Virus record (IMG/VR): IMGVR_UViG_3300005404_000013
Location: 1-33,396 of that record
Length of the DNA stretch: 33,396 bases
Source of the DNA: a virus
Taxonomy: Duplodnaviria; Caudoviricetes
Direction: 5' to 3' (one strand)
Shown here piece by piece: positions 4,601 to 27,341 of the stretch. The number at the start of each line of letters is the position of its first letter. The first letter of the stretch is position 1. The position numbers and the translations under genes were made by a program. Below the pieces are notes generated by a model. It was not told the DNA's origin. It saw nothing but the letters and a program-made list of their open reading frames with translations, and made no database searches.

Positions 4601-7600
4601 GATTAAGAAGTTGAAGAATAATGAGTTTGGTTATGGTTATTCACATGACTATACTCTGAAACCAGAAATTACCTTCCCAATTAACTTACAACTATTCAAT
4701 ACATCAATACTTTCACAGATCAAAATCACCAATCCTGGTGCTGGATATACTTCTCCACCAGCAGTCATCGTAACAGGTGGTGGTGGATTTGGTGCAGAAG
4801 CAATTGCTGTTGTTAAGAACAATCGTCTATCAGAAATTCAAATTAAGAATCCTGGTGCTGGATATAGTTCTGAACCAGTTGTTACTCTTAAATCTGAGTT
4901 TAACTACGTTGTTAACACTGATTTAGGATATCTACAATTTAACTTCCCACATGGAATTACACAGGGTGCTGCTATAACATTCCGTGCAGATGATGTTGGT
5001 AACACTGTAGGTGTTCTACCTCAACCTGGATCTGCTGGTTTGACTGCATTGATTGAAAATCAAATCTATTATGCTATTTCTGGTGAAGCAAATTCACTTG
5101 AAACTGATCAATTAAGATTTGCTCTAACACCTGCTGATGCTGAATCTGGCAACTATATCACTTTCGTAGATGGTTCTGCTGGTACTGGTTCTGGTCGTCA
5201 AGTACTTCTAACTGAGGTATTTGGTGGTGAAGCAGAAGCAGTAGTTGAGACTTCCGTATTCTTGGAAGGTGAGAGAGTTTATATGGGTGATAGTGAAGAT
5301 CAAGCAACCATATTTGCAACTGTCTCTACAAATGATGGTTGGCAGATTGGACCTAAGATCTTAAAACTAATTGATGCTACAGGAACATTTGAGGCTGGAT
5401 ATAGAGTCAATGGTACTGTATCTCGTGCATCTGGTGTTATTGATAATGTATCACTTGCTAAAGGTGTATTGAATATTGGTTCATTAACTGAGACACCAGG
5501 TAAATTTATTGATGATGTTGGTAAACCATCAGAGATTGTTCAGAAAGTTCAAGACTCCTTCTTCTATCAGAACTTCTCATATGTTATCAAATCTCAGATT
5601 CCTATTAATGAGTGGAAGCAACAAATTCTTGATAATAACCACCCTGCTGGTTTCAATATGTTTGGTCAGTTACAACTGACTGGTGGTAAAGACGTATCTG
5701 GACGTAAAGTTGGAACTGAGTTTATTAAGCAGGTTAATATTAATGAGTACTCCAATGTTAATGAAGTAACATCATTTGCTGCTGCTCAACCAATATATTC
5801 TGATTTCAATAACACTGAAGTACTTTTCCGTAAGAAGCGTTTAACTAACTCTGAGGAAATTCTAACTTCTATTGTTAAGAAATTGGATGATATCTCTGGT
5901 GACTTTGATGGTATTAAGAAAGGATTCCCTCTTACTGTAGAGAACCAACAGGTTATCGTTAAGAATGACCAGTTGTTAATTACATTGAATGGTGTTATTC
6001 AGGCACCTATCGATTCATATGATATTGTTGGTGGACAGATTGTATTTAAAGAAGCACCAAAGGCACCTTCTAAGATTGTCTACAAAAACGTTAGTGTTGA
6101 GTTCTTAAATATCACTCGTTTGAATTTAAGTGATGTTGGTGGTATATATCCTGAAATTGGTTATACAGTACAGGGTGATAATAGTGATACTTATGCACTT
6201 GTTGTTGCTACTGGTACTAATACAGTTGATGTTGTAGATTTACAAAATACTGGTGGATCAGCAATATTCGAACTTAATGAAGTAGTTAGAGTAAGTGCTC
6301 TAGGATGGAGTGGAAGACTTGATTCAGTAACGCTACTTAGTGCAGAAAACATATATGAATTTGATGAGACAGTTATTGGTACAAATCGCAGTAAGAATAA
6401 TCCAACTGCTCAAATAACTGAAATCAACTTGAATGAAGATGGTACTGCTGGTAATGATATAGTTTTATCTAAGACTTCTGGTACTGCTAAGTATGAAACT
6501 GGAGTATATGATTTTGATCTTCAAGATATCATATATTCAAATCGTTCAAACGTTGCTGCAAGAATAACATCTCAGGCACCTTATCCTGTTGGTACAGATG
6601 AGAATAGAGGTATTCAGGAATTAACTTCTGGATCTACATTCTATGGTCTATTATTTGAACGTCTAGTTAGTCAATCTTATCCTAATATTCTTCTAGACAA
6701 TATTGCTAAATCTACTGTTACTCCAACTGAACTTTTAGATAATGAGGCTCGTATAAATGGTGACTTCCTAGACTTCGAAGCAATTCGTTCTTCAGAGGTT
6801 ACATATACAGATTTGTCAAATGGTGTATTCAGTGTTGGTGATACACTTAGAAATATTAAGGTAAGATACAATAACCCAATTCTCGGATCCACATACGGTA
6901 TTGCTGCTAACAGACATGCTGATGGTTCTCGTTCTATAACCAGATGTAGAGATGAGATTGTTGACTTTGGTGATGCTCAGATATCAGTAGATCATCCAGA
7001 TTTCTATTATCCAGGACAGTCACAGACTGATGGAAGATCACGTTTCCGTGATGCTTATAGAATGATAATCAAGAATAAGGATTATATCGTAGCACAAGCA
7101 TATGTGGATATGGTTGCTCAGTATCCATCAACTTCTATACCTAGTTCTACTAAGTGTAAGAGAGACATGGCATACTATATCGATGCAGTTGCATACGATA
7201 TGTACTCTGGTGGTAATAAGTATGCACGTAAATTTATTACAGAATACTTTAGTGGAGCAAGTCTACAGTATATCAATGCACAGGTAACTGAAACTGTTTG
7301 GGGTTATTCTAAGTGTAGTGAGTATATGAATCAGGTGGTTACTAACCAACTATCTGGTACTATCACTGTTGACGGAACACCATACACAATATACCAAGAT
7401 ACAACTCTAACTGAAGGTAGAGCAAATTACACTGATACTTCAGGTAGTACTATTAGCAATACAAATAATGGTGCTTGTGCTGATGTTCGTGCTGCTCTTG
7501 ATACACTTAAGAATACTATTAGTGAAACACTTCTACAGAATCAGAACTTTGATGATATTGAGGCAACTGAACCATCTTACAATGCATCTGAGACTACATG

Positions 7601-10600
7601 TCGTCGTGACTTAGGTCTCTTTGTTGATGCATTAGCACAAGATGTTAAGAGTGGTGGTAATCTATCAAGCGTTAAGTTTGTTCGTTCATACTACAATACT
7701 GATGGTACTATCATTTCAGGTCTTCATGCTTCACAAGCAGGTACATCAATAACTCATGCTCGTGATCTTTCGAAGAAAGCAATTAACAACTTACTCTATG
7801 TTAAAGATCTAAGTTCAACAGGTTACAACCTAAATGATCCTACCACTTATAGTGGTGGTGTTGCTCCTGCACAATACTATGATGTTAACTATGCATCTGG
7901 TAATAATCAGACAGCAACGAATTGTGCTAACGTTCAATCTACGATTGATACTCTAACTGGCATCGTTACAACTGCATTTACTGCAGGTAATCAGAATAAT
8001 ATTAATGCACTTGCAAGTATTGATGATGGATCATTCCGTGATGGTGAAACTGTTCGTGTTGTTAAGATTGCTTATAAGGATAAGTCAGCTGGACTATTTT
8101 CTACTGGTAATGTAATTAAAGGTGTATCATCTGGTGCTTCAACAACACTTGAAGGTGTTAACTCTGGTCTAGGATGGATATTCAGTGATAGTAGTGGTGT
8201 AACAGGAACATTTACAGACCGTGAATATATCACTAACTCTACTCTTGTTAATACTGGTGGTGTTACTCAGAGTGTTATCGTTACTAAGTCTGAGTTAGCT
8301 AATTCCAAAAAATCGCTAAAATTTGCTTCTGGTGCATATCTTAAAGCTGTAGATACATATGACTTTGACTTTGACACAGGAGATTTCACACTTGAAGCAT
8401 GGATTAATCCCACTTCTGTAAGTGGCACACAGATGTTGTTCGACTTACGTAGAACTGCTGGATCAGGTTTAAGAGTTAATATGTTCGATAAGGCTATCCG
8501 TGTTTACAACGGAAGCACTAGCATCATACTTTCTGGTGACGTATTTAATACAGCAAATACTTGGTATCACGTTGCAGTCATAAGAAATGGCGGTGTGATG
8601 CAAGCATATGTCAATGGAACACAAGCAGGTAGTAATGCTGCTAATAGTGATGACTTTGGATATGGTCCTTGTTACATTGGATCTGATTTAGCAGGTTCCA
8701 ATGACTTCACTGGTAACATGGATAATGTTATCGTAAGAAAAGGAATTGCAACATTCACTGCTGCATTTACACCTCCTGTTGCTCCAGATTTCACTGATGA
8801 TAAGATCGTTCTAGGTTTAACAGGTGAGACACCATTTATATGTTCTACTACTGAAACTTATGCTAAGTTCACTGGTCAAACTATATCATCTGCAACTGCT
8901 AAGAAGATCGATTATGATTCTAAGCGTGTAATTATTGAAGATGTAGATCTTGGTAGAGATGAGCATCGTCGTTGTGCACAACAAGTACAACAGAATGATA
9001 AGTGGATTTCTGAGACTGCCGTTGCAATGATGAAGGCTAAGTTCCCAGACTTTGTTATTCGTGGTGATGATCCTGCAACTAATAACTACCTTGGTACTTA
9101 CTACTGCTTGAGGGATACTGAAGAATATATTATCGATGCTATCATTAAAGATCTTAAGTATGGTGGTAACTACTACACCACTGTTGCTGCTAAGGGATAC
9201 TTAACTGCTACTGGTGGATTAGATTTCGTTAATAAAGAACTTCTACAAACTCTATACACTTGGCAGAAAGTTGGTGAAATTATCAATTTTGTAATCACAA
9301 CAACAAGTACTGATTTAGAGAACTATGAAAGTGTTAAGTATACAGAAAGATTACGTGTACCTAACAACTTCTCATCACCTGCATCTTCTAATGTACAAAA
9401 TGAAGTTACAGCATTAGTTGATGGTATTCTTGATATTCTTGGACCTACTGGTGCTAGATATCGTGATGCTGGTGATGCTATGTGGCAGAACCGTGATTTC
9501 ATTGCTGAAGAGGTTGCTGCATATATTCAGAATAAGTGGCAGGTTGAAATTGATGGTACAACTTATGATAAGTTGGAGATGCCTGGTTATGGTCAACCAT
9601 ACTGTGAAAGAGATATTAAAGATTTCGTTATTCCTGGTATAATTGCCGACTTGATTACTGGTGGTAATGCTGGTACTAATGAAGTAATTGACAGGTATTT
9701 GGATGAAGATCAAGATATCCTTCATGTAGATGAAGAACTTCTTCCAATGTTGGATGCTATTGAATTTACTAAGTTCTTATCTATTAAAGCAGCAAACCAA
9801 CTCTTAGTTCAATTTGGTAACTCACCTGATGCAAATCAAGGTCAGACAAATATAGATGATTACTATACTGCTGTATACACACAAATTATACCTAAGACAG
9901 TTCATAATACTGATGCTGATTGGGATACAGTAACCTTCCCACCTGATCCACAAGGATATGATCCAGGACGTTCTGATGGAGATAGGTTCCTAGACGCAGC
10001 TGATATGATCGAAAGAAATAAGGATCAGATTGCTTGGGAAGCAGTTCATACAATGAACGATACTGCTAGATTCCAAGATCATACTTATCCTGAAGGTCAA
10101 AGTCAGCAAGATTGTGTTGATGATGTTAATGATTATCTTGATGCAGTTATTCACGATCTTCGTCTTGGTGGTAACAGTAAGGTTTGGGATGCTTCAAATT
10201 ACTATATCGAACCAGAAAATAATGGTATTAAGCACATTGCTGGTGAAGAAGATGCATCTATCTACACATATAAGTTAGCAAGAGATATGGCAATTCTCAC
10301 AATGAGAAATGCTTTTGGACGTGATAACTTCTATGCTCAAGGTGTTAATGATGTTAATACATTAGTTGGTGCTATTGATCCTGGTGTTGATTCATACGAT
10401 CAGAACCCAGTCATTTCAAGACAGATTGATGCTGCTAATATTATCGAACGTAATATTAGATTCATCTCAGAAGAAGCAGTATATCGTGCAAATATTCAAT
10501 ATCCACAACTTCATATCACAAATGGTGATAAGTCTTGTGTAGATGATATATGTGACTTCCTACGTTCCATGACCTTCAATATGAAGTATGGTGGAAACAG

Positions 10601-13600
10601 TAGAGTTTGGGATGCTGCTGATTTCTATAGAAAGGCATCAACATATCATTTAACAAATCAGATGCCAATATATGCCTTCAATGAGGCAAGAGATATGGCA
10701 ATTCAGGCTATGCGTAATATTCCAATTATTGCACGTGGTCAGAATATTCATGGTAAGGTTCAAACATTCTTTGAGCAATTAGACTTCTTCCCTTACAACA
10801 GTAAGGAACGTGATAATCCTAAGATGGAAGCATCACAATTGGTTGGTGGTATTAACGTTAATAAGTCTGCTGATACCTATCAGTTAATTCTTAATAACTC
10901 TCGCTTCGTTGCTGAGGAAGCAGTATATCGTTATACAAGAGATAATGATCTAACACCTGTAACTGAGTTTACTCCATCTGATGCAACATACGATGCTGCA
11001 ACTGGTGATCTAGTATTATCATTACCATCACATAATTTAACTACTAATGATTCTATCTCGATAGATGCAAATTCATTAATCTTTACTTGTGACCAAGATG
11101 ATCATGCTTCAGAGCATAGTTATCCTCGTGAAACTGATCCTTCATATAATGAGAGATTAGCAATCACTGCTGTTGGTACTAATGCACATACACCAACAGA
11201 TGCAGATTACAATGCTGAAACTGGTGCATTAACTTTAGATATTGCAGCACATGGATTAAGACAATCTGAAGCATATACTGTATCTGATGCAGATTACAAT
11301 CCTAAGACTGGTATTTTAAAACTTGCTGTTGCTAATCACAACTTTAGAAATGGTGACAGAATTAAGTTCTCTCATGATGCATTAATCTTCCAGTGCGATA
11401 ATGATAACTACAATACAAACCACACATATCCACGTAAGGGTGTTGACCCATCTAGTGATAAGTGGTTACCTGTAAGTGCTGTAACTGATGGTACCTTTGA
11501 GGTACAGATTGGTAAGACTGCTGCTGCTGGTCAACATAAGTTTGTTGCTAACAGTCAGTTGAATGTTACTGATGCTGATTACAACCCAACAACAGGTATA
11601 ATGACACTTACCAGTGCTGCACATGGCATCAATAATGGTGAGTTCATTAAGATTACTGACGGTTCATTAGACTTTACTTGTACACAAGGTGGCGGTACTT
11701 ATAGTTACCCTCGTGCACAAGTATCACAACACACTGCAGATACAGGTACAACATATAATCCAACTACAGGTATATTGAGCATCACAACAAGTTCTGCTCA
11801 TAACATGGCAAATGGTGAGTGGATTAAGTTTGCTGATAACGCATTAACCTTCACTTGTGGAAGAGATAATAATGCTACTAACCATACATATCCTCGTTCA
11901 TCTGACCCTGCTAGTGGTAAGTTCTTAAGAATATCAAATGTTACAGCAAGTACATTTGAAGTCAAAGTACTTGAGATTACTCCTTCAACTAACACAAGTG
12001 TTCATGCATTTGTAACTGGTGCAAATAATGGAATTACACATGCTGACCCTGCTGCTGCAGGATATGTAAGAGCATTCAACGTTGCTGCCGACACATTCGA
12101 TGTTCAGGTATTAGCAAATGCTCCTTCTACAAACACAACAGTCCACACATATACTGGTGGAACTGCATCTAATGCAATCACTAGAGCAACATTTGAGAAG
12201 GCAAATGATTCTGTCTTAATTGAAGATGGTGCACTTACATTTACATGTGATGCTGATAATCATCAATCACAACATCCATATCCAAGATATACTGATTATG
12301 CTAGTGACGAGTGGTTACCAATAACAGAAGCATGGAACGATAGTTTCAAAGTCGATGTACATGTTGCTCCAGTTATTGAGTACACTCCAACTGCTGCTTC
12401 ATTCACTCCGACTACTGGTCTTCTTGAATTAACAATCGGATCTCATGATCTCTCTATTGACTCTAAAGTCATGATCAAGACTGGAGGATTAACCTTCCGT
12501 TGTGATCAGGATGGTCAGTCAAGTGATCATGCATATCCAAGAAATACAATTGATACACATACCGCTGGTGCTGGTACAACATATGATCCTGTTACAGGTC
12601 TTATGACTATTAACACAGGTACCACACATGGTATTAAGGTAGGTGACTGGGTTAAGTTTGATGATGGTGCTGTAACCTTCCGTTGTGATGAAGATAGTCA
12701 ATCATCTGATCATGCATATCCAAGATCTACTGACCCTGTAAGTGGTAAGTGGTTACAAGTTTCCGCTGTTGCTGCACAAACATTTACAGTTAAAGTCTTA
12801 ACAACTACACCTTCCACAAACGTAACTACTCATGTATTCCAGAGTGGTACTGCTAATGGTATTAAGCAAAAGCGTGATAGATCATTCGAACAGCATGTTC
12901 CTGTTACTGCAATAACTGGTACAACTATTACTCTTGACGTTGGTGTTTCTTCTAATAACACAACTCACGTATGGCAGTCTGCTCTTGCTGGTGCTATTCA
13001 ATTCAACCCACTATATCAGCATACATTTGTTTCTGCTGTAACTGGTGGTGTTAAGAGTCAAGACGGTACTGTTACCGTAAATGTTGGAACAACTGCTGCT
13101 GTTAATTACACTCCAACTGCTGCTACATATGATCCTGAGACAGGTGACATGTGGTTGAATGTTGGTTTACATAACCTAACTGAAGGAACGACAATTAAAC
13201 TTGCTGATGATTCCTTAACATTCACATGTAGTATGGATAATAATGGTACAAACCATACTTATCCAAGAGCATCAGATCCAGTTAGAGATACCAATATCCC
13301 AATTAAAGAAGTTGGTACTATATCTAAGACAGTTACAGGTGCACTTTATGATCCTAATTCTGGTAATTTAGTTCTTACTGTACCTGCTCATGGATTCTCC
13401 AATGGTAACAGAGTTAGAATTGCAGACGGATCATTAGTATTCACATGTGCTGCTGATCAACATGCTACATGGCATAGATATCCACGTCCAACAGATCCAT
13501 TCAGTGATGAGTGGTTAGTTATCTCTGGAGTATCAACAGATTCATTCCAAGTTAATATTGGTGTTTCTCCTAATCAATCCGCACATACATTTATCAGTGC

Positions 13601-16600
13601 TTCTAACAATGGATTAGAGAAGCAAGATGGATCAATCATCATCAACGTTGGTTCTACACCAAATATCAACTACGATGTATCAAATGCAACTTATGATCAT
13701 CAAACTGGTGTAATGGTTCTAACCATTGGATCACATGGATTGAAGACAGGTGATAAATTAAAACTCGGTGCTGAAACTCTGAAGTTTACATGTGCAATGG
13801 ATGGAAACTCCGCACAGAAGACTTATCCAAGAAGACTTGCAGGTGATGGTGGAACAGACCCATTCTTCAATACTTCTATTAATGTTGATGCTGTAGGATC
13901 AACACAGCATACTGCTACTGATGCAACTTATGTACCTACAACTGGTGTAATGACACTAGAAATTAGTGGTCATAACTTTAATGCATCAACAACTCATACT
14001 GTAACTGGTGCACAGTATAACGCTAAGACTGGTGTAATGAAGATGACTCTAAACGGTCATGGATTTACTCCTGGCGATCAGATCAAGTTTAGTCCTAATG
14101 CATTGACATTCCAGTGCACAATGGATAGTGGAGCATCAAACCATACTTATCCAAGATCTAGTGATCCTGTTGCTAATAAGTGGTTAACAATCACATCTGT
14201 CACAACAAACACATTCGAAGTTATTGTTGGTAAATCTCCAATAGTTCAGTGGGATGTATCTAATGCTGAGTACGATCAGGCAACTGGTCATATGATTCTT
14301 ACTACACCTGGTCCTCACGGTCTTCGTGGTCACTCAGATCATACAGTTACAAGTGCAACATACACTGCTTCAAGCGGTCTAATAGTTCTTACTATTCCTA
14401 ATCATGGATTCTCTAATGGTGATAAGATTAGGATTGCTGATCATTCATTAACATTCACATGTAATCAGGATAGTCATCAATCTGAGCATACATATCCAAG
14501 ATCTACTGATCCTTCAAGTGGTAAGTTTATTACTATATCAAACGTAACTACAAATACATTTGAGTGTAATATTCTTCAGGGAACTTCACCAACTAACACT
14601 ACAGCACATACATTTATCACTGCTGCGAAAAATGGCGTTAGACGTGCTGGTGAGACTGTTAAACTTGAAGCAAATTCATTAACATTCCGTTGTGCACAAG
14701 ATGACTATGCTACAGATCATGCATATCCAAGATCTAGTGACCCTGCATACAACGTTCCTCTTCATATAGTTCATTCTACAGAGAAGACAATCACTGTTGA
14801 TGTTGGTGTTGCTGCTAGTTCAAATCAGTTTGCTCACAACTTCGTTAATGCTGCTACTGGTCAAACAACACATACTATTACTGATGCATCATACACAGCA
14901 TCAAGTGGTGTAATGACTCTTACTGTTCCTAAGCATGGATTTGCATTAGGTGAACAGATTAAGATTGATAATAATGGAATCACATTCAAATGTGAGATGG
15001 ATGATTATGCTACAGATCATGCATATCCACGTGCTACTGACCCTGCTAGTGATAAGTGGTTGACTATATCTAACATTACTGAAAACACATTTGATGTTAA
15101 TGTTGGTAATACTCCACTATCCACCTATACTCCAACTGGTGCTTCATATAATCCAACTACAGGTAATCTACAAATTGTTATTGGATCACACACTCTTGCA
15201 GAAGGAGACAGTATTAAGTTAGCAGAGAATGCTATTACTTTCCGTTGTGATGAAGATGGACAAGCAAGTGATCATGCATATCCTAGAAGTCTAACTGATT
15301 CACATACTGCTGTAGCTGGTGGTACATCATACAATCCTACTACTGGTGTTTTGACTCTACAAACTGCTGGACCTCATGGTTTGGCAACTGGAGATTGGAT
15401 TCAGATCGCTCAGAACTCATTAACATTCAGATGTGATGAAGATGGTCAGGCAACAGATCATACATATCCTCGTTCATCTGACCCTGTAAATGGTCGTTGG
15501 TTGAAGATTACATACGTTAATGCAAGTAAGTTTAGTGTTGTTGTACTTGATGATATTCCTTCAACAAATACAACTACTCACGTATGTACAGCAACATCTG
15601 CTAGTGGAATCACATCTAAGCGTGACCCATCATACGATAATGCATTACCTATCATTGCTGCTGATTCTACTTCAATCACAATCAATGTTCTGAATACTGC
15701 ACCATCTACAAATACTACAACTCATGTATTCCAATCTGCACTTACTAACTCAGTAGTTGCAGGTGGTAACTATGCACATATGTTTGTAAGTTCTGTTGGT
15801 GGAGCACTTAAGAAACAGACTAAGGCATTAATTACTGGTGGTAATTATGCACATACATTTGTTTCTGCAACAAGTGGTGGAATTGAGAAGGCAAATGACT
15901 ATGTACAGATTGTAAATGATTCACTAGTCTTCCGTTGTGGTAAGGATGACTTTGGTTCACTTCATGCATATCCTCGTGCAACTGATCCGTTCAGTGGAAG
16001 ATGGTTACCAATATTCAATGTACAGACAAATGAATTTGATGTAAATGTTGGAATATCACAAAACGAATCTCAACACAATTTTGCATCTGCTGTTGCTAAT
16101 GGAATTCTAAGACAGAGTGGTACTGTCACAATTAACGTTGGTTATGATTCTCTTCCTGCTAATCAACATGCTCATGTATGGGTAGGAATGGAGAATAAGT
16201 TAACTGCTGCTGCAGGTACAACTTATGATCCAACAACAGGTGTAATGAAGATTAAAACTGCTTCTGCTCATAAGTTGGAGAATGATGAATGGGTTAAGTT
16301 TGATGATGATGCTGTAACCTTCACCTGCACACAAGGTGGTGGTAATCATTCATATCCACGTGCTACTGACCCAATGTCAGGTAGATGGTTGAAGGTTCAA
16401 AATGTAACCACTGACACATTCGAAGTTGTTGTTCTTGATGTTATTCCTTCAACTAACGTTACTGTTCATACATTTGTAACTGGTGCAAATAATGGTATCA
16501 CTAAGGCATGTGTTATCACTGGTGGAATTCATAAGCACACATTCGTAAGTGCAACTTCTGGTGCTATACAAACTGGTGGTGCTTACACTCATAAGTTTGT

Positions 16601-19600
16601 ACGTGCACATGATAATGCAATTAACAAACTTTATACAATTCCTGGTGGAAATCAGAATTGCTGTGATGACGTTGAGCGTATATTAAGAGGTGTTGCATAC
16701 CATATTGCATATGGTGGTAACAATGAAATATATGATATGGCAATGGAGTATGTTACTCAGACTCACCTCAACAATTACTTCGAGGAGAAATGGAGTCTTG
16801 GTATTATGACTCTAACCAAGGAGATCATCACTCAAATTATTAGAAATATTCAGACTCCTGTATATGGTAATCATGGTCTTCTACAGTATAGAGATACAAC
16901 AATCACTACTGATGTAACACAACCAGCATGTCCAACAGAGGTCGCTGCTGCAACTACATTAATTGACATCGTAATGGATGCAATTACTACCAATGCAGTT
17001 AGTGGTACTCGCACATTACCTACAGGTTCAGGTAATGGTCCTTGTGCTAATGTCGCTGCAACAATAACTACCATGTTTGGTATTATTACAGATACCATTA
17101 GTTCTAATGCAAGTTTGGATGGTGTTGGTCGTCAGATACCATCTATCTGGCCATGTCATTATCACGGTGATGTTGCTGAGAGAGATCTAACAGTTACATA
17201 TCAAACTGCAGCTGCAACTTGGAATCAGACATGTGCAACTACTGCTTCTGCTATAAGCACATTATTTGATGTTGTTGTTAATACAATAGAAAGTGCTAAG
17301 ACTAATACAAACCACTTAAGTGGTTTAACAAGAACTGTACCACCATACGCTAATACACTTTATCAGCATTATACTTGCTATAACGTTGTATCTGCAATGA
17401 CAACTCAGTTCGATTTAATTATCGATACTCTTGGTGCTGGTACATACTCTAATCGTAACGTTGCACATTACTTAAGATTTAATGATAAAGCAATCACTGA
17501 TCGTGCTCTTGCTGCAACTCAAGCAAATTATCCTGTAGGAGATAATCCAGATCTAGCATTCTTTAAGAACGTTCTTGAAGCTGGTTTATATGATTTAACT
17601 ACAAATGGTAATGCTTCTGCGTTTGAACTTGCTGGAACATGGTTCGATGGTGAAGGTCAATTTATCGCTTATCCTACAGTAGATAGAATTCGTTTACTCT
17701 ATGGTTTGAATAAGGTAAGAGAATATTGTAAGGAAGTTGTTCAAGATCCAACTAATGCTGGATGGAATACATATGCTGTTTATCGTTATCCTGAAGTAAA
17801 TGGATATCGTCGTCACGTAGAATGGGATCAGGAAACTACAGAATTTAATTTTGATAGTTCACTAAACTGCTTAGAATTTGCTATAGAAAGAGCAACATTC
17901 CCAACAGATAACTTGGTAACATTTAATGCTGCCACTGATGTAATTAATTACTCTAATCAGTATGATGAAGGTGTTGATTACAATACTGATCCTGCTCTAG
18001 TAAATCTAACTCCAACAATTGAAGTTGGATATGAAAGAGTAGAGAATCGTGCACGAATTAATAGAACTAACTTCTTCCGTCGTGGTGATGTTGTTAAGTA
18101 TGTTCTTGCATCTGCTCAATCACTATCTGGTGCTAATGATCAAGATTACTACTACGTCCTCAATGCACAACCACAGTGGTTTGAGATTGCTCGTATGCCT
18201 AATCATGATGCAAGATACCGTGCATTTGCATTAGATACAACTAATGCTGGTAACCAGCAATTCTTCACAGTTCGTCGCTCTGGAATTGATCGTGTTGCTA
18301 ACACTTACGGTGTACGTGATATTGATCAACCAATTACTGCTGGATTCAATATTGCTGATGTTCTAGTTGGTACAACAACTGGTGCATCTGCTGAAATCTC
18401 ATCTAGTTTCATTAATAGTGCGAATGTCATTAAGACCTTCAAGTACTATGGTTTAAATACCATGTCTGCCACCGCATTTACAAACGGTGAGCAAGTTCAG
18501 GTACAAGGTGCAACTGCTAATAATGGTTATGTAATGCAGAGAGTTCTTAGAGATGAGAATAACTTAGGTTGGATTAAACTTGAACTTGTTCAGGGAACTA
18601 TTTCCGCTGGTCAAACTATTGAAGGTGTTGATTCTGGTGCAACTGCTGTTGTAACTTCAGTCATAGAAGATCGTCTATTAATCAATGAGAAGGTAGGTGA
18701 ATTCCTACAAGGTGATTGGTTGTTTAAAGATACAACTGCTACAGAAGCATACGCAAGTGCTTATGATAATAAGTCAGGTGTTCTTACAGATAATAGCGGT
18801 GGTCGTGTAACGATAGACGTTGAAACTATTACTGGTGCTTTCACATCTGGTGATATTATCTACGGATCTAAGACAGAAAAAATTCTCGACTTTGTAGGTA
18901 TTACAGACGGTGGATCTCCAATTACAATTAACACCTACGTACATGGTGAGAAGGTTAGAAAATTAACTCTATCTCAGGTAATTACGGATAGTGAATATTC
19001 TGGTACATTTGTCGCTGGTGATAGAGTTTATCTACTTCAGGGAACTACACCAACCAATCCTGGCTGGTGGGGATATGTAACCAAGTATGATTACAGACCT
19101 GACGATAACGTTAACGATCTCTATATTGCTGGATTACAAAATTACTGGACAGGTGATGCATCAGAACCAACAACTGAACCTGATGGATCTTTAGCTGCAA
19201 CTGCTGGATATAACATTGGTAAGTTTGATAACTTACAGAACTTCCCATTAATCTATGCAACAGCATCAAATTACACTGAGACAGGTTATTCATCATACGG
19301 TAAGATTATTGCTATTGAACAATCTGGTATTACTGCTCGTTGCTGGTTAGAAGATGTACAAGGTGATTTTGTAGATAACATGACAGTTAAGTCCGATAAT
19401 GGATGGATTGCTGGTGTTACATCTGCTAAGAGTTTAATTGGACGTGTTGATCGTTACTTCCGTGGATTTGACGGTACGCAGACACAGTTTAATCTTACAA
19501 TCTCTAATGGTCAGCAATATCTACCTGATCCTGCTGGTCACATGTTGATCTTCGTTAATGGAATTCTACAACCACCTGGTGCTACTGGTGCTTACACTGC

Positions 19601-20796: not shown

Positions 20797-22377
20797 ATGA
20801 GTGCTACCGCCACTTACAATCCAGGTACAAATATCTTGGACGTTGCATCTAACGGGTTACCTAGTCCTGTTACATATGGATCGTTTCCAAACCTGAACAA
20901 CCCCAATACGGTTACTGAACAAGATTTCGATCATGACTTCACATACCGTGGGGGTACCTTTGGTATTGAAAGAACATTTGATAGTAATGCATTTACTCAG
21001 GAAGGGTATGCTATAAACATTACTTTATCTTCTGCAGATAATACATTACTAGGTGATGAAACTACAGGAGAGATAAGACCTGGAGATAATTTATTATTCA
21101 AATTTAGTGATGGTAGACATCAGAAGTTTGTATATAATGGAACTACTTTTACTTCATCAAATGGTTATTGTTGGAGATCTACTGATACTAATTTACAGTT
21201 AGTTACAAATACATCACAGTATGTAAGCGGTACTTACACATACTATGATCAAAGAAATGGTAGAACAGAAACACCTTTGGGTGCAGTTGGTATAACAGCA
21301 AATGGTGTTGTTGTTTTTAATCCTTCTGCAGGTCTAGGTGGAAACCCACCCGCAGGTTTTAATTGGAATGCTCACTATGAATATTCACCTGTAGATTTTG
21401 GTGATGATTCATGTGGTGGTCATCCAGAACAGACTGGGCAATATCATTACCATGATACTCATTTCATTACTTGTTGGAATAATAATTCCATCATGTCAAC
21501 ATATAATGATTATTATGGATTAAGTCAGTACAACGGTGATACATTACGTCACCCAGACGGACATTCAAAAATTCTTGGTTATTCATTTGATGGATTTCCT
21601 GTATATGGTCCTTATGGATATACGGAACCATTTGGTGTATTGACTTCTATTAAAACTATGAGGTCTTCTTATCAATTGAAGGCAACGGAAGTAGCAGGAA
21701 GACCTGCTTATGGAAACTCATTAGCAAACCCTGCTGCTGGTTCGTTTATACAGGACTGGGAATATAATGAAGGTCTTGGTGATTTAGATTATCATAATGG
21801 ACGTTTCTGTTTTACACCAGAATATCCTGCTGGTACATATGCATACTTCCTTAGTGTAACTGAACAGGGTGATCCTGGTTACCCTTATATGATTGGTGTT
21901 ACTACTAGAGAAGTAATAGATCAACCAGCAAACAATGGTGCTCAAGCACCAGCCGCACCTCCTTCTGGTGGTGATGGTGAGGCACCACCAGCAACCCTTA
22001 ATATTGCTTCACAGCCTCAGAATTCTACTGTCAATTCTGGTCAAACTGCTACGTTTACCCTCTCAGTTAATATTGTTCCTGAAGATGGACCTAAGACATA
22101 TCAGTGGTACAGATCTACAGATGGTGGATTTGCATATTCAACGTTGAATGGTGCAACTTCATCTACTTACCAGTTTACAGCATTGTCTTATATGACTGGG
22201 TATAAGTTTAAGTGTGTTGTTGCTGGTCCAACTGGTGCTACACCAGCTCAAAACTCCCCACTTGAATCTGATGTTGCTACTCTTACCGTTACTGGTACTG
22301 GTGGTTCAACCAATAATACATTCGATAATACTAATTTGACTCTTGATGCTACAACATCTCGATTCGACCAAACCTAA
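20797..22377 (+). CDS. YHYH-domain virion protein with a C-terminal Ig-like domain
   Basis: PLGAVGITANGVVVFNP, DSCGGHPEQTGQYHYH, HSKILGYSFDGFPVYGPYGY and GDLDYHNGRF...YAYF are YHYH family motifs. A Pro/Ala linker precedes the Ig domain (IASQPQNSTVNSGQTATF...TYQWY...GATSSTY...YKFKCVV). Confidence 0.88.
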   Translation: MSATATYNPGTNILDVASNGLPSPVTYGSFPNLNNPNTVTEQDFDHDFTYRGGTFGIERTFDSNAFTQEGYAINITLSSADNTLLGDETTGEIRPGDNLLFKFSDGRHQKFVYNGTTFTSSNGYCWRSTDTNLQLVTNTSQYVSGTYTYYDQRNGRTETPLGAVGITANGVVVFNPSAGLGGNPPAGFNWNAHYEYSPVDFGDDSCGGHPEQTGQYHYHDTHFITCWNNNSIMSTYNDYYGLSQYNGDTLRHPDGHSKILGYSFDGFPVYGPYGYTEPFGVLTSIKTMRSSYQLKATEVAGRPAYGNSLANPAAGSFIQDWEYNEGLGDLDYHNGRFCFTPEYPAGTYAYFLSVTEQGDPGYPYMIGVTTREVIDQPANNGAQAPAAPPSGGDGEAPPATLNIASQPQNSTVNSGQTATFTLSVNIVPEDGPKTYQWYRSTDGGFAYSTLNGATSSTYQFTALSYMTGYKFKCVVAGPTGATPAQNSPLESDVATLTVTGTGGSTNNTFDNTNLTLDATTSRFDQT

Positions 22378-22380
22378 ATA
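22373..22380 (+). promoter_or_regulatory. T4-type late promoter (CCTAAATA) overlapping the YHYH stop codon
   Basis: TAAATA core ends 23 nt upstream of the ATG at 22404; an SD-like AAGGA lies at 22389-22393. Confidence 0.6.
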
Positions 22381-22403
22381 ACATTGTAAAGGACTAGAAA
22401 AAA

Positions 22404-23900
22404 ATGGCAAAGCAGTCTATTGGTATTGGTTCTTCTGCTAACGACGGTACAGGTGATACCCTTCGTGATGGTGCAGTGAAACTCAATTCCAACTTCACAG
22501 AGATATATCAAGCCCTTGGAGAGGGTTCTAATCTCCAAATTGATATTGGTGCTGGTATAACTGATAACCAAGTTTTAAAGTGGAATGCATCTAATACACA
22601 ATTTGAAGGTGCAAACTATGATACATTAACATCTGATTTGGATGTTGGTGGAAATTATATTGTTTCTAGTTCTGCTGGCGATGTAGTTATAAAACCAAAT
22701 GGTACTGGTGATATTAAATTTTGGGCAGGTGGTAGTGGTCAAGCATATGCTGTATGTGATGGTGCTGATGGGTATTTCAAATGGAATGCTCCATATACTG
22801 ATGTAGCAAGTCTTCCAAGTGCATCAACATATCATGGTATGTTTGCTCATGCACATGACACAGGTAAAGCATACTTCTCTCATAGTGCTGCTTGGATTCC
22901 TCTCATCTCAGAGAACAGTAGTGTATCACTATTGAGTGATGTTGATACAACTGTTAATGGCGGTCCTTCAGATGGACAAGTTCTTAAGTGGGTTGCTGCA
23001 ACATCAAAATGGTCACCTGCTAATGATGAGACAACTTCTGGAGGTGGTGGAGGATCAACTCAAAACCTCTTTGAAACAATTAATGCTGATACTGGTACAA
23101 CCACTGCAAGTGCTGCAACAGATACATTAATCTTTGCTGGTGGAACCAATATTGCTACATCTATCACAGGTGATACTGTCACAATAGCAATGACAGGGAC
23201 ACTTGGTGATCCAGATCAAAACCTTTTCTCAACGATTGGTTCAGATGCGGGTAATAAAACTGCAGCAAGTGCAACTTCTACTATTAACATTCTTGGTGGT
23301 ACTGGAATTAGTACTGCTGTATCGGGTGACAACCTTACTGTAACAAACGATTCACCAAATGTTGTACAAAACGCCCTCCAAACGGCAACTGCGGATACGG
23401 GTTCTTATACTGCTGCTGCTAGTGATTCTACTCTTACTATTTCTGGTGGGTCCAACATATCTACTACTATTACTGGCTCCACTCTTACTATAAACAGCAC
23501 TGCTACAGCATTGCCAATAGTAACAGAGGGTCAAAGTATTGTTGCTACAGGATCCAATACTATGAATGCTTATGCATCTCCAGTATTGTCCTATACAACT
23601 TCTAATAATGGTGCTGGTGCATATAGATTGACAGGTCCAGGAGTTAATAGTAGTACAGACAATCCAACACTATTCCTATACAGAGGATTCACATACAGAT
23701 TCAATAACACCACAGTAGGTGCGAATCACCCATTCGAATTACGTGTGGGTTCAGGTGGTGCTGCTCTTACTGATGGTGTCTCTGGTTCAACAACTGGAGT
23801 AATAGTATACACGGTTCCCATGACCGTTGCTGCTGGTACAACTTATGTTTATCAGTGCACAATACATGGTGCAATGGTAGGAAATCTCACTATAGTCTAA
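22404..23900 (+). CDS. Fibre-like baseplate-associated protein: T4 gp9/gp10-type N-terminus, three shaft repeats, C-terminal cupredoxin-like domain
   Basis: N-terminus MAKQSIGIGSSANDGTGDTLRDGAVKLNSNFTEIY resembles the T4 gp10 start (MKQNINIG..DDGTGDYLR..KINENFDELY). Two 'DxQVLKW' fibre motifs. C-terminus HPF...YQCTIHGAMVG. Confidence 0.8.
   Translation: MAKQSIGIGSSANDGTGDTLRDGAVKLNSNFTEIYQALGEGSNLQIDIGAGITDNQVLKWNASNTQFEGANYDTLTSDLDVGGNYIVSSSAGDVVIKPNGTGDIKFWAGGSGQAYAVCDGADGYFKWNAPYTDVASLPSASTYHGMFAHAHDTGKAYFSHSAAWIPLISENSSVSLLSDVDTTVNGGPSDGQVLKWVAATSKWSPANDETTSGGGGGSTQNLFETINADTGTTTASAATDTLIFAGGTNIATSITGDTVTIAMTGTLGDPDQNLFSTIGSDAGNKTAASATSTINILGGTGISTAVSGDNLTVTNDSPNVVQNALQTATADTGSYTAAASDSTLTISGGSNISTTITGSTLTINSTATALPIVTEGQSIVATGSNTMNAYASPVLSYTTSNNGAGAYRLTGPGVNSSTDNPTLFLYRGFTYRFNNTTVGANHPFELRVGSGGAALTDGVSGSTTGVIVYTVPMTVAAGTTYVYQCTIHGAMVGNLTIV
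23061..23510 (+). repeat. Three ~50-aa tandem shaft repeats
   Basis: QNLFETINADTGTTTASAATDTLIFAGGTNIATSITGDTVTI / QNLFSTIGSDAGNKTAASATSTINILGGTGISTAVSGDNLTV / QNALQTATADTGSYTAAASDSTLTISGGSNISTTITGSTLTI. Confidence 0.9.
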
Positions 23901-23901
23901 T

Positions 23902-25767
23902 ATGGCAAGAACAGTTCCAGGATCAGGTGCAGCAATTTCACCAGTCTTTAATAGTACGTTTGGTGTTAAGGACGTTTTTGTGGTGTCTGGTGGAACTGGA
24001 TACACTGCTTCCGATCCACCAAAATTAATTATTTCAAATTGTGGTACTCCTGTTCGTGATGCAGTATTACGTCCTGTCATCAATAATGCTGGAGAGATTC
24101 AATCTGTAGAAATTATTGATCCAGGTGAAGGATATGATCCATTAAGACTTGTAGTTGAAAGTACTGATGCTGGTGCTTTTGGTGCTGATGCTGATCTGTT
24201 TTTAAAGGAAGATGGTAGCGTTGATCTGATACAGATGCGTACCAATGGTGATGGTTATTTTGGTGGTACTACAGCGAAATTAGAAGGTGGTGGTGGAGCA
24301 GGTGCAGAATTGGTACCTGTTACTGGATTTGTTACTGGTTTATCATTAGAGAATCAAGGTAGAAATTATAGTAGAGATGATGTAACTATAGTTATTAGTG
24401 GTGGTGGAGGTGAAGGTGCCACTGGTATTGCTGAGGTTAATGAGTTTGGTAAATTAGAAAATATAACAATTAGTAATGAAGGTGAGTTCTTTGAAACTCC
24501 ACCTATTATTCAAATTATTGGTGGAGGTGGTAGTGGTGCTACTGCTGAAGCAGAGATTAATCTTGGTAAGATTACAGATATTACTATCACCAATCCTGGT
24601 GGTGGATATAGTCCTGATCCATTAAAGGCACCTGATATAATCTTTACCAGAAATACAAACTTAATAAGAACAACAAGAAATCGTCAATCTTTAAATTCAG
24701 TAGTATATAACGTTACTGGTCTTACTAAAGATGTTGCTGTTTCTGATGTAACTATTAACGTTGAAACTACTAATGCATTTCCTGGTTCTGGAAAAGCGTT
24801 AATAGGGAAAGAACTTTTTCGGTATACTTCTAAAACTGCTACCCAATTTAAGGGAGTTAGTAGAGGTATTAATTTTAAATATGATCAAAAGGTAACGTTA
24901 GATACATTGCAGGATGATCCTGGGACTGGAATAACTGGATATTCATTTACTATTAATGACAGAGTTCGTCGTGTACAAGAGAATAGTGATAATAAAATTG
25001 CTATTGTATATGACTGGAGACCTGCAACTAGAGATCTATATCTAGTATTCCAAGTAGATGAACTTGCATTTATTGATGCAGGTCGTTCTCAGACAGAGGC
25101 ATCAATCGTTGCATTCGTTGCTGGTGTTGCATCATCTACTGCTACTGGTGTTGAACCACATGTATTAGTTGATTCTAATGGTGATGAGATCATACTCTTC
25201 ACTGATCCTTTAACGGTATTCCCGAATAAGAAATTTGAAGATGATGATGAACTGTCTGGTGCTGGTGATGGTATTCCTGACCTGGTAAATACTGGTACAG
25301 ATTTTGAATATGAAACCAGTCTAGACGGTGGTATTGCATCTTCATTATATGGTATTGAAGAAACAGTTGGTGGACAGAATACAACATTACTAGCAGTTGG
25401 TGATTCCATCTATGATGGTAGTCAATCACAACTAGTTGCCTCAGTTCAGTCTGCTGGTCAACTTGGTGATGGTGAAATTCATCTTGCGACATATACGATA
25501 TCAAGTAAGACTTGGCCAGTTACAACACCTTTTCAGGTTAACGAAACTGTTTCTGGTTCTACTTCAGGGGTTACTGCTGTTGTAACTAGTTGGACTCCTG
25601 CTTCTGCTTCAGGACAATTTTCATACTTAGGTTTGAAAACTCCTACGAATAATGGAGCAAATTATCAATTCACTACAGCAGAAAATGTTGTTGGTGGAAC
25701 ATCTGGTGCATCTATAAAACCTTGGGAGATTAGTTATGATTCCGAGTTGAGAAACGAACCAGAGTAA
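23902..25767 (+). CDS. Gly-rich virion structural protein (cyanophage-type, GxGY/GGGG-xGA repeats)
   Basis: 621-aa ORF tightly coupled to the upstream gene (TAATATG). Repeated 'I.I.NxGxGY..P.I.I.GGGG.GA.A' units and 'F..xE.V.G.TSG' units typical of T4-like baseplate proteins. Confidence 0.8.
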   Translation: MARTVPGSGAAISPVFNSTFGVKDVFVVSGGTGYTASDPPKLIISNCGTPVRDAVLRPVINNAGEIQSVEIIDPGEGYDPLRLVVESTDAGAFGADADLFLKEDGSVDLIQMRTNGDGYFGGTTAKLEGGGGAGAELVPVTGFVTGLSLENQGRNYSRDDVTIVISGGGGEGATGIAEVNEFGKLENITISNEGEFFETPPIIQIIGGGGSGATAEAEINLGKITDITITNPGGGYSPDPLKAPDIIFTRNTNLIRTTRNRQSLNSVVYNVTGLTKDVAVSDVTINVETTNAFPGSGKALIGKELFRYTSKTATQFKGVSRGINFKYDQKVTLDTLQDDPGTGITGYSFTINDRVRRVQENSDNKIAIVYDWRPATRDLYLVFQVDELAFIDAGRSQTEASIVAFVAGVASSTATGVEPHVLVDSNGDEIILFTDPLTVFPNKKFEDDDELSGAGDGIPDLVNTGTDFEYETSLDGGIASSLYGIEETVGGQNTTLLAVGDSIYDGSQSQLVASVQSAGQLGDGEIHLATYTISSKTWPVTTPFQVNETVSGSTSGVTAVVTSWTPASASGQFSYLGLKTPTNNGANYQFTTAENVVGGTSGASIKPWEISYDSELRNEPE

Positions 25768-25772
25768 ACTCA

Positions 25773-25780
25773 CATAAATA
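25773..25780 (+). promoter_or_regulatory. T4-type late promoter (CATAAATA) upstream of gp8
   Basis: NATAAATA lies in the 35-nt intergenic gap, 22 nt before the ATG at 25803. Confidence 0.7.
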
Positions 25781-25802
25781 AAAAGAAGGTAAACGCAGCT
25801 AA

Positions 25803-27338
25803 ATGGCACTACTTACTGACCAATTTAGAATTTTTACTGCCAATAAGTTCATTAAGGCTTTAGAAGGACCAGATCCAATACAGTCTGATGCTGCTGCTGG
25901 TGCCAGTAGAGATCGTCTATACGTCTTCATAGGAAGACCTCAAACGTGGGATAATGAAAATAATCCACCTACTCCTGTAGATTCCTTTCAGGAATTTTCG
26001 GATGTCTATGATGACCTGATATCACTCAAACGTGTTCTAGCGAATGATGTAATTCAAGTTATTAGACGTGTTGACTGGACTCCTCCAGAACAGACCACTG
26101 GTGGTCTGGGTTACGTATATGATATGTATCGTCATGATTATTCCTCGACTAAGACCGCATCTTCGGGTGCTACGAAATTATACGACGCAGATTTCTTCGT
26201 TGTTAACTCGTCCTATCAAGTTTACAAGTGCATTTACAACGGCACATCTCCTTCTGATCCTAACGGTAAACCTTCTACTATTGAACCTACAGGAACGTCC
26301 ACCAGCATTATCACAACTGCTGATGGCTACCGTTGGAAGTATATGTACACGATCCCTGTTGGTCAAGTCCTAAAATTCTTCTCTAACGAGTATATGCCTG
26401 TACTATCTGACACTGCTGTTGTGTCTGATGCTGTGGGTGGTGAAATTGATACTGTTGTTATTCAGGCATCTGGTGCTGGATATAACAATGGTACTTATGA
26501 AAACGTCTCTATAAAAGGTGACGGTACTGGTGGTCGTGTTTCCATTGTTGTAGATGGTGGTAAAGTTGTTTCTGCAACTGTAACATCTGGTGGTTCTGGA
26601 TACACATTTGGTAAAGTTATTATTGATGAGATCAATGGTATTGGTGCTGGAACTGGTTCTGGTGCTGCTATTGATGTTATTGTTCCACCTATCAATGGTC
26701 ATGGTTCAGTACCATCCATTGAACTTGGTGCTTATCGTGTGATGATTAACACGAAGTTCACCTACGCTGAGGGTTCAGGTGACTTCCCAACTGATAACGA
26801 CTACCGTCGTATTGGTCTTGTTATGAATCCTGACAGGTTTGGTACTACCGAATTGGTAGCAGATCTAACTTTGTCTGGTACAAATGCAGCAATATTCTCA
26901 CCTACATTCACTGGTCAGTTCCAAACTGATGAAATCATTACTCAATCTCGTACCGTTGGTGGTCAGCAGGTAACTGCAAGAGGTAGAGTTATTTCTTGGA
27001 ACAGTACTACAAAGGTTTTGAAGTACTATCAGAACAGAGTTGACGGTGTGTTCCCTGAAATTACAGGTAACCTAGTTGACTTTGAAGGTGGTAACGCAAT
27101 AGTTGGTGCTACATCTGGTACATCAGGTGACCCCGACATTAACTTCCCAATCATTGCTGGTTCATCAACCCGTGTTATTAACAACACTGAATATGATTTG
27201 GGTATGTCATTTACTAATGGTTATGCCACTCCTGAGATTCAACCAAACTCAGGTGACGTAATTTACATAGATAATAGGAGTGCGATCTCTCGTGCTGGTG
27301 ACCAAATCGAAGATATCAAGATCGTAATCGAGTTTTAA
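25803..27338 (+). CDS. gp8: Baseplate wedge subunit gp8
   Basis: LYVFIGRPQTWDNENNPPTPVD, VIRRVDW, VYKC, PSTIEPTG...DGYRWKYMYTI, YRRIGL..NP and SGDVIYIDNR..I.R..DQIEDIKIVIEF are T4 gp8 family motifs. Confidence 0.92.
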   Translation: MALLTDQFRIFTANKFIKALEGPDPIQSDAAAGASRDRLYVFIGRPQTWDNENNPPTPVDSFQEFSDVYDDLISLKRVLANDVIQVIRRVDWTPPEQTTGGLGYVYDMYRHDYSSTKTASSGATKLYDADFFVVNSSYQVYKCIYNGTSPSDPNGKPSTIEPTGTSTSIITTADGYRWKYMYTIPVGQVLKFFSNEYMPVLSDTAVVSDAVGGEIDTVVIQASGAGYNNGTYENVSIKGDGTGGRVSIVVDGGKVVSATVTSGGSGYTFGKVIIDEINGIGAGTGSGAAIDVIVPPINGHGSVPSIELGAYRVMINTKFTYAEGSGDFPTDNDYRRIGLVMNPDRFGTTELVADLTLSGTNAAIFSPTFTGQFQTDEIITQSRTVGGQQVTARGRVISWNSTTKVLKYYQNRVDGVFPEITGNLVDFEGGNAIVGATSGTSGDPDINFPIIAGSSTRVINNTEYDLGMSFTNGYATPEIQPNSGDVIYIDNRSAISRAGDQIEDIKIVIEF

Positions 27339-27341
27339 AAA

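Follow-up and report, generated by a model that had tools for sequence, protein, structure and literature searches.

The window analysed here is the whole of a 33.4-kb virus record (IMG/VR record IMGVR_UViG_3300005404_000013, 33,396 nucleotides, Caudoviricetes), which is 18% complete. It begins with a single open reading frame (ORF) that is cut off at its 5' end and still encodes 6926 amino acids. An initial annotation had picked out about eight helical units with shared motifs within this giant ORF, and had read them as phycobiliprotein-like domains carrying both bilin-attachment cysteines. All of the motifs that it quoted lie in frame, and parsing with three helix motifs (opening, core and closing) resolved the region into eight units (Table 1) in the order u1[u2], u3, u4[u5[u6[u7[beta repeats]]]], u8, where brackets enclose nested insertions. 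Helix-profile scores of the units are 14-51, whereas shuffled sequence reaches 5-8.5 at the 95th percentile. The core Cys is present in seven of the eight units (u8 lacks it) and six have both the core and the closing Cys; in u3 a Ser replaces the closing Cys, and no closing helix was scored for u8. Thus, the claim of two attachment cysteines holds for six units and fails for u3 and u8. Likewise, the CxRD chromophore-contact motif that had been described is found in units 1-4, but the core site reads CxDD in units 5-7 and is lost in unit 8. The closing helices of units 6, 5 and 4 follow in reverse order, as expected if each domain was inserted into a loop of the preceding domain. The same nesting grammar occurs in relatives (56 architectures among 121 proteins).

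Table 1. Features of the giant ORF, its neighbours and the single-site arrays of other viruses (nucleotide positions; those of the window unless a locus is named)
Feature	Coordinates	Strand	Opening helix start	Core Cys	Closing Cys	Remarks
Giant virion protein, 6926 amino acids	3..20783	+				gp7 (baseplate wedge initiator) position; S-WAM1 gene order, PHROG 701
Unit 1	6912..7980	+	6912	7599	7923	Opening helix 6912-6977 with Asp39-equivalent; core CRRD; hosts unit 2
Unit 2	7029..7535	+	7041	7155	7476	Uninterrupted; Asp39-equivalent 7050; core CKRD; modelled unit
LamG/concanavalin-like beta domain, between units 1 and 3	8290..8840	+				From motifs, approximate bounds; PF13385 listed for orthologs
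Unit 3, single site	8961..9440	+	8961	9105		CLRD kept; Asp39-equivalent is Arg; closing Cys is Ser (9384)
Unit 4, opening and core	9456..9800	+	9456	9603	17376	Asp 9465; CERD; closes 17364-17430
Unit 5, opening and core	9984..10310	+	9984	10113	17232	Asp 9993; CVDD; closes 17220-17285
Unit 6, opening and core	10419..10718	+	10419	10536	17043	Asp 10428; CVDD; closes 17031-17096
Unit 7, opening helix	10863..10928	+	10863			Asp 10872
Beta-rich tail-fibre-type repeats within unit 7, ~1900 amino acids	10950..16600	+				PF16190 weak; PHROG 5342, 14 stretches
Unit 7, core and closing helix	16644..16982	+		16659	16929	CCDD (position of first Cys)
Closing helices of units 6, 5, 4, in reverse order	17031..17430	+			17043, 17232, 17376	Assigned from the nesting
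Unit 8, degenerate	17448..17890	+	17448			Without core Cys, Asp87-equivalent and Asp39-equivalent
Baseplate genes 3' of the giant ORF	20797..33395	+				YHYH protein, gp9/10-like, wedge protein, gp8, DUF4815/VrlC-type; fix the context
Single-site arrays, near-complete viruses G051-G054	L242:3608-12808, L250:464-14323, L253:1979-5407, L273:8552-15121					Tandem units

The Pfam family PF00502 exceeds its cut-off of 22.2 bits on two of three pieces of the region (27.3 and 35.4 bits), and the 16500-17900 piece alone stays under it at 13.4 bits. A profile of nine units matches 49 PDB sequences at E<=0.01, of which 48 are named phycocyanin, phycoerythrin, allophycocyanin, CpcA or ApcB and the remaining one is a 164-residue 'fluorescent protein alpha'. 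Unit 2, the only unit modelled confidently, gave an AlphaFold model from a 54-row alignment with a predicted local distance difference test score (pLDDT) of 91.5 and a predicted template modelling score of 0.89; positions 6900-8000 modelled from a single sequence gave a pLDDT of 33 and were unusable. The 37 PDB rows that Foldseek listed for the unit 2 model are all phycobiliproteins and nearly all beta chains (probability 1.0, template modelling score 0.52-0.66). A VIA full alignment placed the model on residues 30-184 of phycoerythrin 5aqd_M with a Z of 16.8 and a root-mean-square deviation of 2.3 Å over 144 residues; the top eight VIA rows are all phycobiliproteins, and the best other globin-like fold reaches Z 11.1. 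Sequence identity to beta phycobiliproteins is 10-17%. Thus, the AlphaFold and Foldseek check that had been proposed returned a phycocyanin-like fold for unit 2, and the reading of the units as phycobiliprotein/globin-fold modules is supported. As judged from profiles and model, fold homology supports the derivation of the units from beta-type phycobiliproteins.

The beta subunits CpcB, PecB and CpeB share with the phage units the globin-type fold over 144 residues, the loop before the last helix, the Cys82/84-x-Arg-Asp site, and Asp39 with the Cys153/155 site. Unlike them, the phage units have a shorter B-E linker, often have Asp in place of Arg86, and are nested with long inserts in a 6900-residue virion protein. 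The N-terminal ~30 residues, by which phycobiliproteins pair alpha with beta subunits, also differ: the PDB profile match, the VIA alignment and the sequence alignment all begin at residue 30-39 of solved beta chains, indicating that the X/Y helices that build the alpha-beta monomer are missing from the phage units. Phycobilisome rings would therefore not form, and the phage architecture argues against trimer or hexamer assembly and energy transfer. By sequence, the units resemble a beta phycobiliprotein without being full members of the family: they lack the pairing helices, and their pigment is putative. The core-membrane linker ApcE (PDB 4xxi; VIA Z 14.1) is comparable in having an inserted phycobiliprotein domain fused into a large scaffold, but it has one such domain, is cellular and transfers energy to photosystems.

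The unit profile aligns the opening Asp to Asp39 of beta-phycocyanin, and it is this protein, rather than the allophycocyanin-alpha motif to which it had been likened, that the opening helix matches. The likening of the closing helices to the beta-Cys153/155 motif fared better: the closing Cys and the beta-specific loop before it align to beta-Cys153, in a weak second local stretch within the significant match. Six units keep both beta sites: Cys82/84 and the accompanying Asp, and Cys153/155 and Asp39. In phycocyanin, the beta153 bilin is held at its pyrrole nitrogens by beta-Asp39 (PMC6614406).

The residues of the two sites covary. At the core, 288 non-redundant units have Cys in 92%, Arg in 75% and Asp in 92%, and Asp stands at +3 of the core Cys in 133/134 units of a training set and 633/633 of an independent set. 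The training set comprises 166 units: 59 are directly closed, 41 have no scored closing helix (34 of these without Asp39), and 66 that stand before another opening were set aside. Among the directly closed units, the closing Cys is present in 53/53 with Asp39 and in 4/6 without. In the independent set (655 units from 145 new proteins, 580 of them excluded because they are nested, in tandem or unscored), 75 units are directly closed and the closing Cys is present in 59/59 with Asp39 versus 1/16 without (Fisher p 7e-15, overstated given the kinship of the units). Because the seed of the closing profile consisted of Cys-bearing helices, with the Cys column masked, Cys-less closing helices are found less well; 566 of 578 closing helices carry Cys although this column did not enter the scoring. 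The core Cys is lost alone in 5 of 57 Cys-closed units. The window follows the same rule: a closing Cys is missing from exactly the two units that lack Asp39. The fate of each Cys is thus tied to its own Asp and not to the second Cys, as in bilin pockets rather than in a disulfide.

In a set of 50,697 phage records, 352 have a match to the region, each of them named Synechococcus, Prochlorococcus, 'Cyanophage' or 'Marine', and a profile search gave 1509 clusters at 50% identity, some of which may be true phycobiliproteins. PF00502 is already annotated in databases on many of these phage proteins. The literature searched, which covers few subscription journals, yielded no description of phycobiliprotein domains in structural proteins of phages. 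The initial annotation had seen no ho1, pebS/pcyA or CpeT-type gene in the window, and no heme oxygenase or bilin reductase gene is present among its long ORFs. Co-occurrence was assessed in 32 genomes (31 cyanophage-type and one pelagiphage, with one record labelled partial), chosen for the domain (6), for cpeT (1), through gp8 (17) or by accession (8). Both cpeT and the domain are found in 17 of these genomes, the domain only in 5, cpeT only in none, and neither in 10 (Fisher p ~1e-4). A phage alignment caught cpeT in 17/32 (14 of the 17 are in that alignment); Pfam CpeT, which overlooks divergent phage genes, caught 14/32. The expected co-occurrence thus stands in one direction, since all 17 cpeT genomes have the domain, but fails in the other. 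On a terminase tree of 30 genomes, the domain changes six times and cpeT four times, never in opposite directions. A near relative of the phage in the window, G003 (gp8 92% identical), has both. Loss of the second site in the five domain-bearing phages without cpeT is rejected, as all five keep both Cys, and so is an S-type lyase in its place, as none of the five has a PF09367 match. The only PF09367 match over the cut-off lies in S-B68 (W27, 77006-77185), a phage without a domain match, so that this lyase has another target.

Bilin reductase is present in 12 of the 32 genomes, two of which have no domain, and a general coupling of the domain to pebS/pcyA in cyanophages is rejected. By host, the reductase is found in 6/6 domain-bearing Prochlorococcus-host phages versus 2/14 Synechococcus phages. 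A study of phage CpeT reportedly found that the protein bound phycoerythrobilin, with no host target shown. T-type lyases serve the 153 position (PMC10452541), and phage lyases have been treated as host-directed (PMC10665884, PMC2984593). A second site together with a T-type lyase serving position 153 in cyanophages fits a pigment on the domains.

The placement of these genes varies. The cpeT-to-domain gap is 0.9-4.1 kb in 15 S-PM2-type phages and >50 kb in the window-type phages S-WAM1 and G003; in S-PM2 itself, cpeT lies ~1.5 kb before the giant domain-bearing gene (L086, 17743-31058), and the record lists 16 tRNAs inside this giant coding sequence, probably an annotation offset. Tandem cpeT pairs occur at G020:C1:28915-29788 and G038:C1:31834-32695. 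In P-SSM7 (W26), a cpeT match at 13407-13838 with one TAA stop directly precedes the bilin reductase gene at 13936. Three phages without cpeT, Sf-CH8, S-T4 and S-SKS1 (L170, L171, L172), have one two-site domain in a fibre-like protein of 836-928 amino acids. The terminase frame of phage B3 (L209) has 900 amino acids, compared with ~550 in others, and perhaps holds an intein.

A second family of domains was found in large viruses. Many of the best 150 of the 1509 clusters are tandem single-site arrays, and in the near-complete viruses G051-G054 (Table 1) the units keep the core Cys, Arg and Asp and have lost Asp39 and the closing Cys. From 60 viral loci for one such array, five of the six largest contigs were tested. 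All four near-complete viruses (97-100%) encode an adjacent heme oxygenase and PcyA-like reductase, and this bilin cassette lies ~115-160 kb (linear distance) from the domain gene. No cpeT, cpeS or psbA was found in any of the five contigs; the fifth, a 37% fragment, also gave no heme oxygenase or reductase. In the reverse direction, 80 reductase loci yielded 13 new contigs of at least 80 kb, all incomplete, of which six carry the domain (two of them near-identical) and none has psbA. Viral bilin cassettes have been described before, and what they are for has been left open (PMC11480375); CXRD globins, for their part, are able to acquire bilin with no lyase involved (PMC10151467). A lyase-free site in viruses with their own bilin synthesis and without cpeT also fits the pigment reading. 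The single-site family resembles the CXRD globins BBAG-1 and BBAG-3, which occur with a heme oxygenase and a bilin reductase and are loaded without a lyase (PMC10151467). By their description, the BBAGs are stand-alone bacterial proteins in the same gene cluster as these enzymes, unlike the viral domains, which stand in tandem in giant proteins far from the cassette. Clustering of the BBAG type was accordingly seen neither among the long ORFs of the window nor in G051-G054. A further domain is found in a gene of 292-307 amino acids directly after the giant gene (G087:C1:12291-12653, G091:C1:18673-19023), and genes of similar size follow the giant gene in L242, L250 and L253. In G054 (L274:702-2696), ClpS-like and small heat-shock genes precede the reductase and heme oxygenase.

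The giant ORF belongs to PHROG 701, virion structural protein. In S-WAM1, the order gp6-giant-YHYH-gp9/10-x-gp8 matches the downstream order of the window, and the giant gene there directly follows gp6; this shared order places the window ORF at the gp7 position, an assignment that uses the downstream order only, gp6 itself lying outside the window. The ortholog S-SZBM1_208 (6619 amino acids) was detected with 71 peptides by mass spectrometry in CsCl-purified S-SZBM1 virions (PMC9146016). Presence in the virion is thus shown for a relative's protein and is carried over to the window protein by homology. From position and the virion ortholog, we assign the giant ORF to a T4-like cyanophage as a predicted gp7-type baseplate protein. 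It shares gene position, virion location and N- and C-terminal parts with T4 gp7-type wedge initiators and giant cyanomyophage tail and fibre proteins (PHROG 701, 4527, 5342), which are annotated only as structural or tail proteins and for which no pigment role was found in the literature searched. The repeats within unit 7 carry a recurring C..D....H.YPR..DP motif with many His (PHROG 5342/1276) and could bind metal. At ~2900-3280, the window has two chitin-binding-type (CBM_5_12-like) repeats, one of them at 23.1 bits, under the cut-off of 26.2.

We consider it probable (roughly 0.7) that bilin is covalently attached to the domains of the finished virion. Up to 13 bilins would be attached per chain, and the finished particle would be pigmented. 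In the mechanism that we propose, the chain, through nested insertion, would extend outwards and return, its globin-fold domains stacking into a rigid arm. Late in infection, the host would supply the bilin, or, if host bilin is scarce, the phage heme oxygenase and reductase would. Loading of the Cys82/84-like site would be spontaneous or helped by a host lyase, and the phage T-type lyase CpeT would act on the Cys153/155-like site. As the least certain step, light taken up by the bilins would move the arm, so that the virion could attach by day. Adsorption of P-HM2 and P-HM1 fails in the dark, where P-SSM2 still adsorbs to a reduced extent; the light effect on S-PM2 adsorption is independent of host photosynthesis, and light-sensitive tail fibres have been proposed (PMC6628666). 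Domain matches number 6 in P-HM2, 13 in S-PM2 and 0 in P-SSM5, a species-mate of P-SSM2. With three phages only, and with P-SSM2 still light-responsive, this pattern is a lead only. We put forward light-gated attachment as the purpose tentatively, as a possibility that is itself rather doubtful and only slightly ahead of a passive shield (below).

Several observations weigh against this proposal. The Foldseek E-values are all >0.001 (best 1.3e-3), and units 5-7 have Asp for Arg86, as do 37/134 units of relatives. Of the 22 domain genomes, 5 have no cpeT and yet keep both Cys, and the terminase tree offers only two well-supported independent contrasts, for which a sign test is not significant; the cpeT-domain link is thus not proven. 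The two genomes with a reductase and no domain are those of P-SSM5 and S-SSM7. In the single-site family, 7 of the 13 reductase contigs, all incomplete, are without the domain, and the reductase is found in 0/28 further domain-bearing fragments; as these are 18-64% complete and the cassette is distant in complete genomes, the latter count is uninformative. Three points concern the light-driven step: light also raises adsorption (PMC6628666) in P-SSM2, which is taken as domain-free, the BBAG holoproteins described in PMC10151467 were photoinert, and arrays of 20-30 copies look more coat-like than switch-like.

A pigment could also serve as a passive shield, in which many photoinert bilins around the tail machinery take up light or remove reactive oxygen, so that free virions decay more slowly. 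This explanation shares the pigment claim and is possible, if doubtful as the purpose: it would suit the up to ~30 domain stretches per protein, the presence of the domain in psbA-less viruses, and the photoinert, weakly fluorescent BBAGs (PMC10151467), but the pigment would lie on baseplate and fibres rather than surrounding the DNA, some phages have a single domain in a protein of 836-928 amino acids, and the strict light dependence of P-HM2 and S-PM2 adsorption would be left unexplained.

The other explanations dispense with pigment on the virion. An unpigmented scaffold, with the captured fold serving only as a rigid helical spacer or for host binding and the Cys/Asp pairs kept for folding, appears unlikely. 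It is consistent with unit 8 and its orthologs, which persist after the loss of all site residues, and with the five phages that have no lyase for the second site, but not readily with the joint retention and loss of Cys and Asp at each site, the Cys of nearly all closing helices despite the masked column, or the association with phage bilin genes seen in two groups of viruses. We give still less weight to loose or intracellular tetrapyrrole binding, as a bilin sink or an assembly checkpoint tied to the host photosynthetic state, which would leave mature virions little pigmented. In its favour, bilin genes are usually taken to act in the infected cell (PMC11480375); the retention of the attachment Cys in 92% of the 288 units and the stability of thioether bonds speak against it. 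Least probable is a structural disulfide between the two Cys of a unit, the alternative raised by the initial annotation. The independent loss of the two Cys, each tracking its own Asp, speaks against it, as do the 5/57 Cys-closed units without a core Cys and the one Cys per unit of the single-site family (for example, 8 cores and 9 Cys in 1143 amino acids); in its favour, most two-site units keep both Cys, and exposed virion proteins can become oxidised after lysis. The bilins at the two beta positions of phycocyanin, whose fold the unit 2 model has, are 38.7 Å apart (PMC6614406 Table 3), the Cys-Cys separation in the units being taken from phycocyanin and not from model coordinates. Disulfide bonds between domains or between chains may occur.

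New in this analysis are the Asp39-Cys153 covariation, the five domain-only exceptions for cpeT, and the single-site family with a bilin cassette. The domain family is large, counting both the phage records and the profile-search clusters, and its monomeric two-site bilin domains could serve as fluorescent tags. More speculatively, many large aquatic phages may have pigmented, light-responsive virions in which bilins on baseplate and fibre domains would make host attachment depend on light, with cpeT, pebS, pcyA/pcyX and heme oxygenase, genes long interpreted as aiding host photosynthesis, mainly pigmenting the particle, also in viruses of non-cyanobacterial hosts. If bilin is attached to the virion as we propose, three questions would have one target: the substrate of phage CpeT, the role of phycobilins in phages of Prochlorococcus and of non-cyanobacterial hosts, and light-dependent adsorption. 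The adsorption of some cyanophages in the light without host photosynthesis (PMC6628666) would gain a candidate explanation, and the unexplained pigment genes of such viruses would gain a use.

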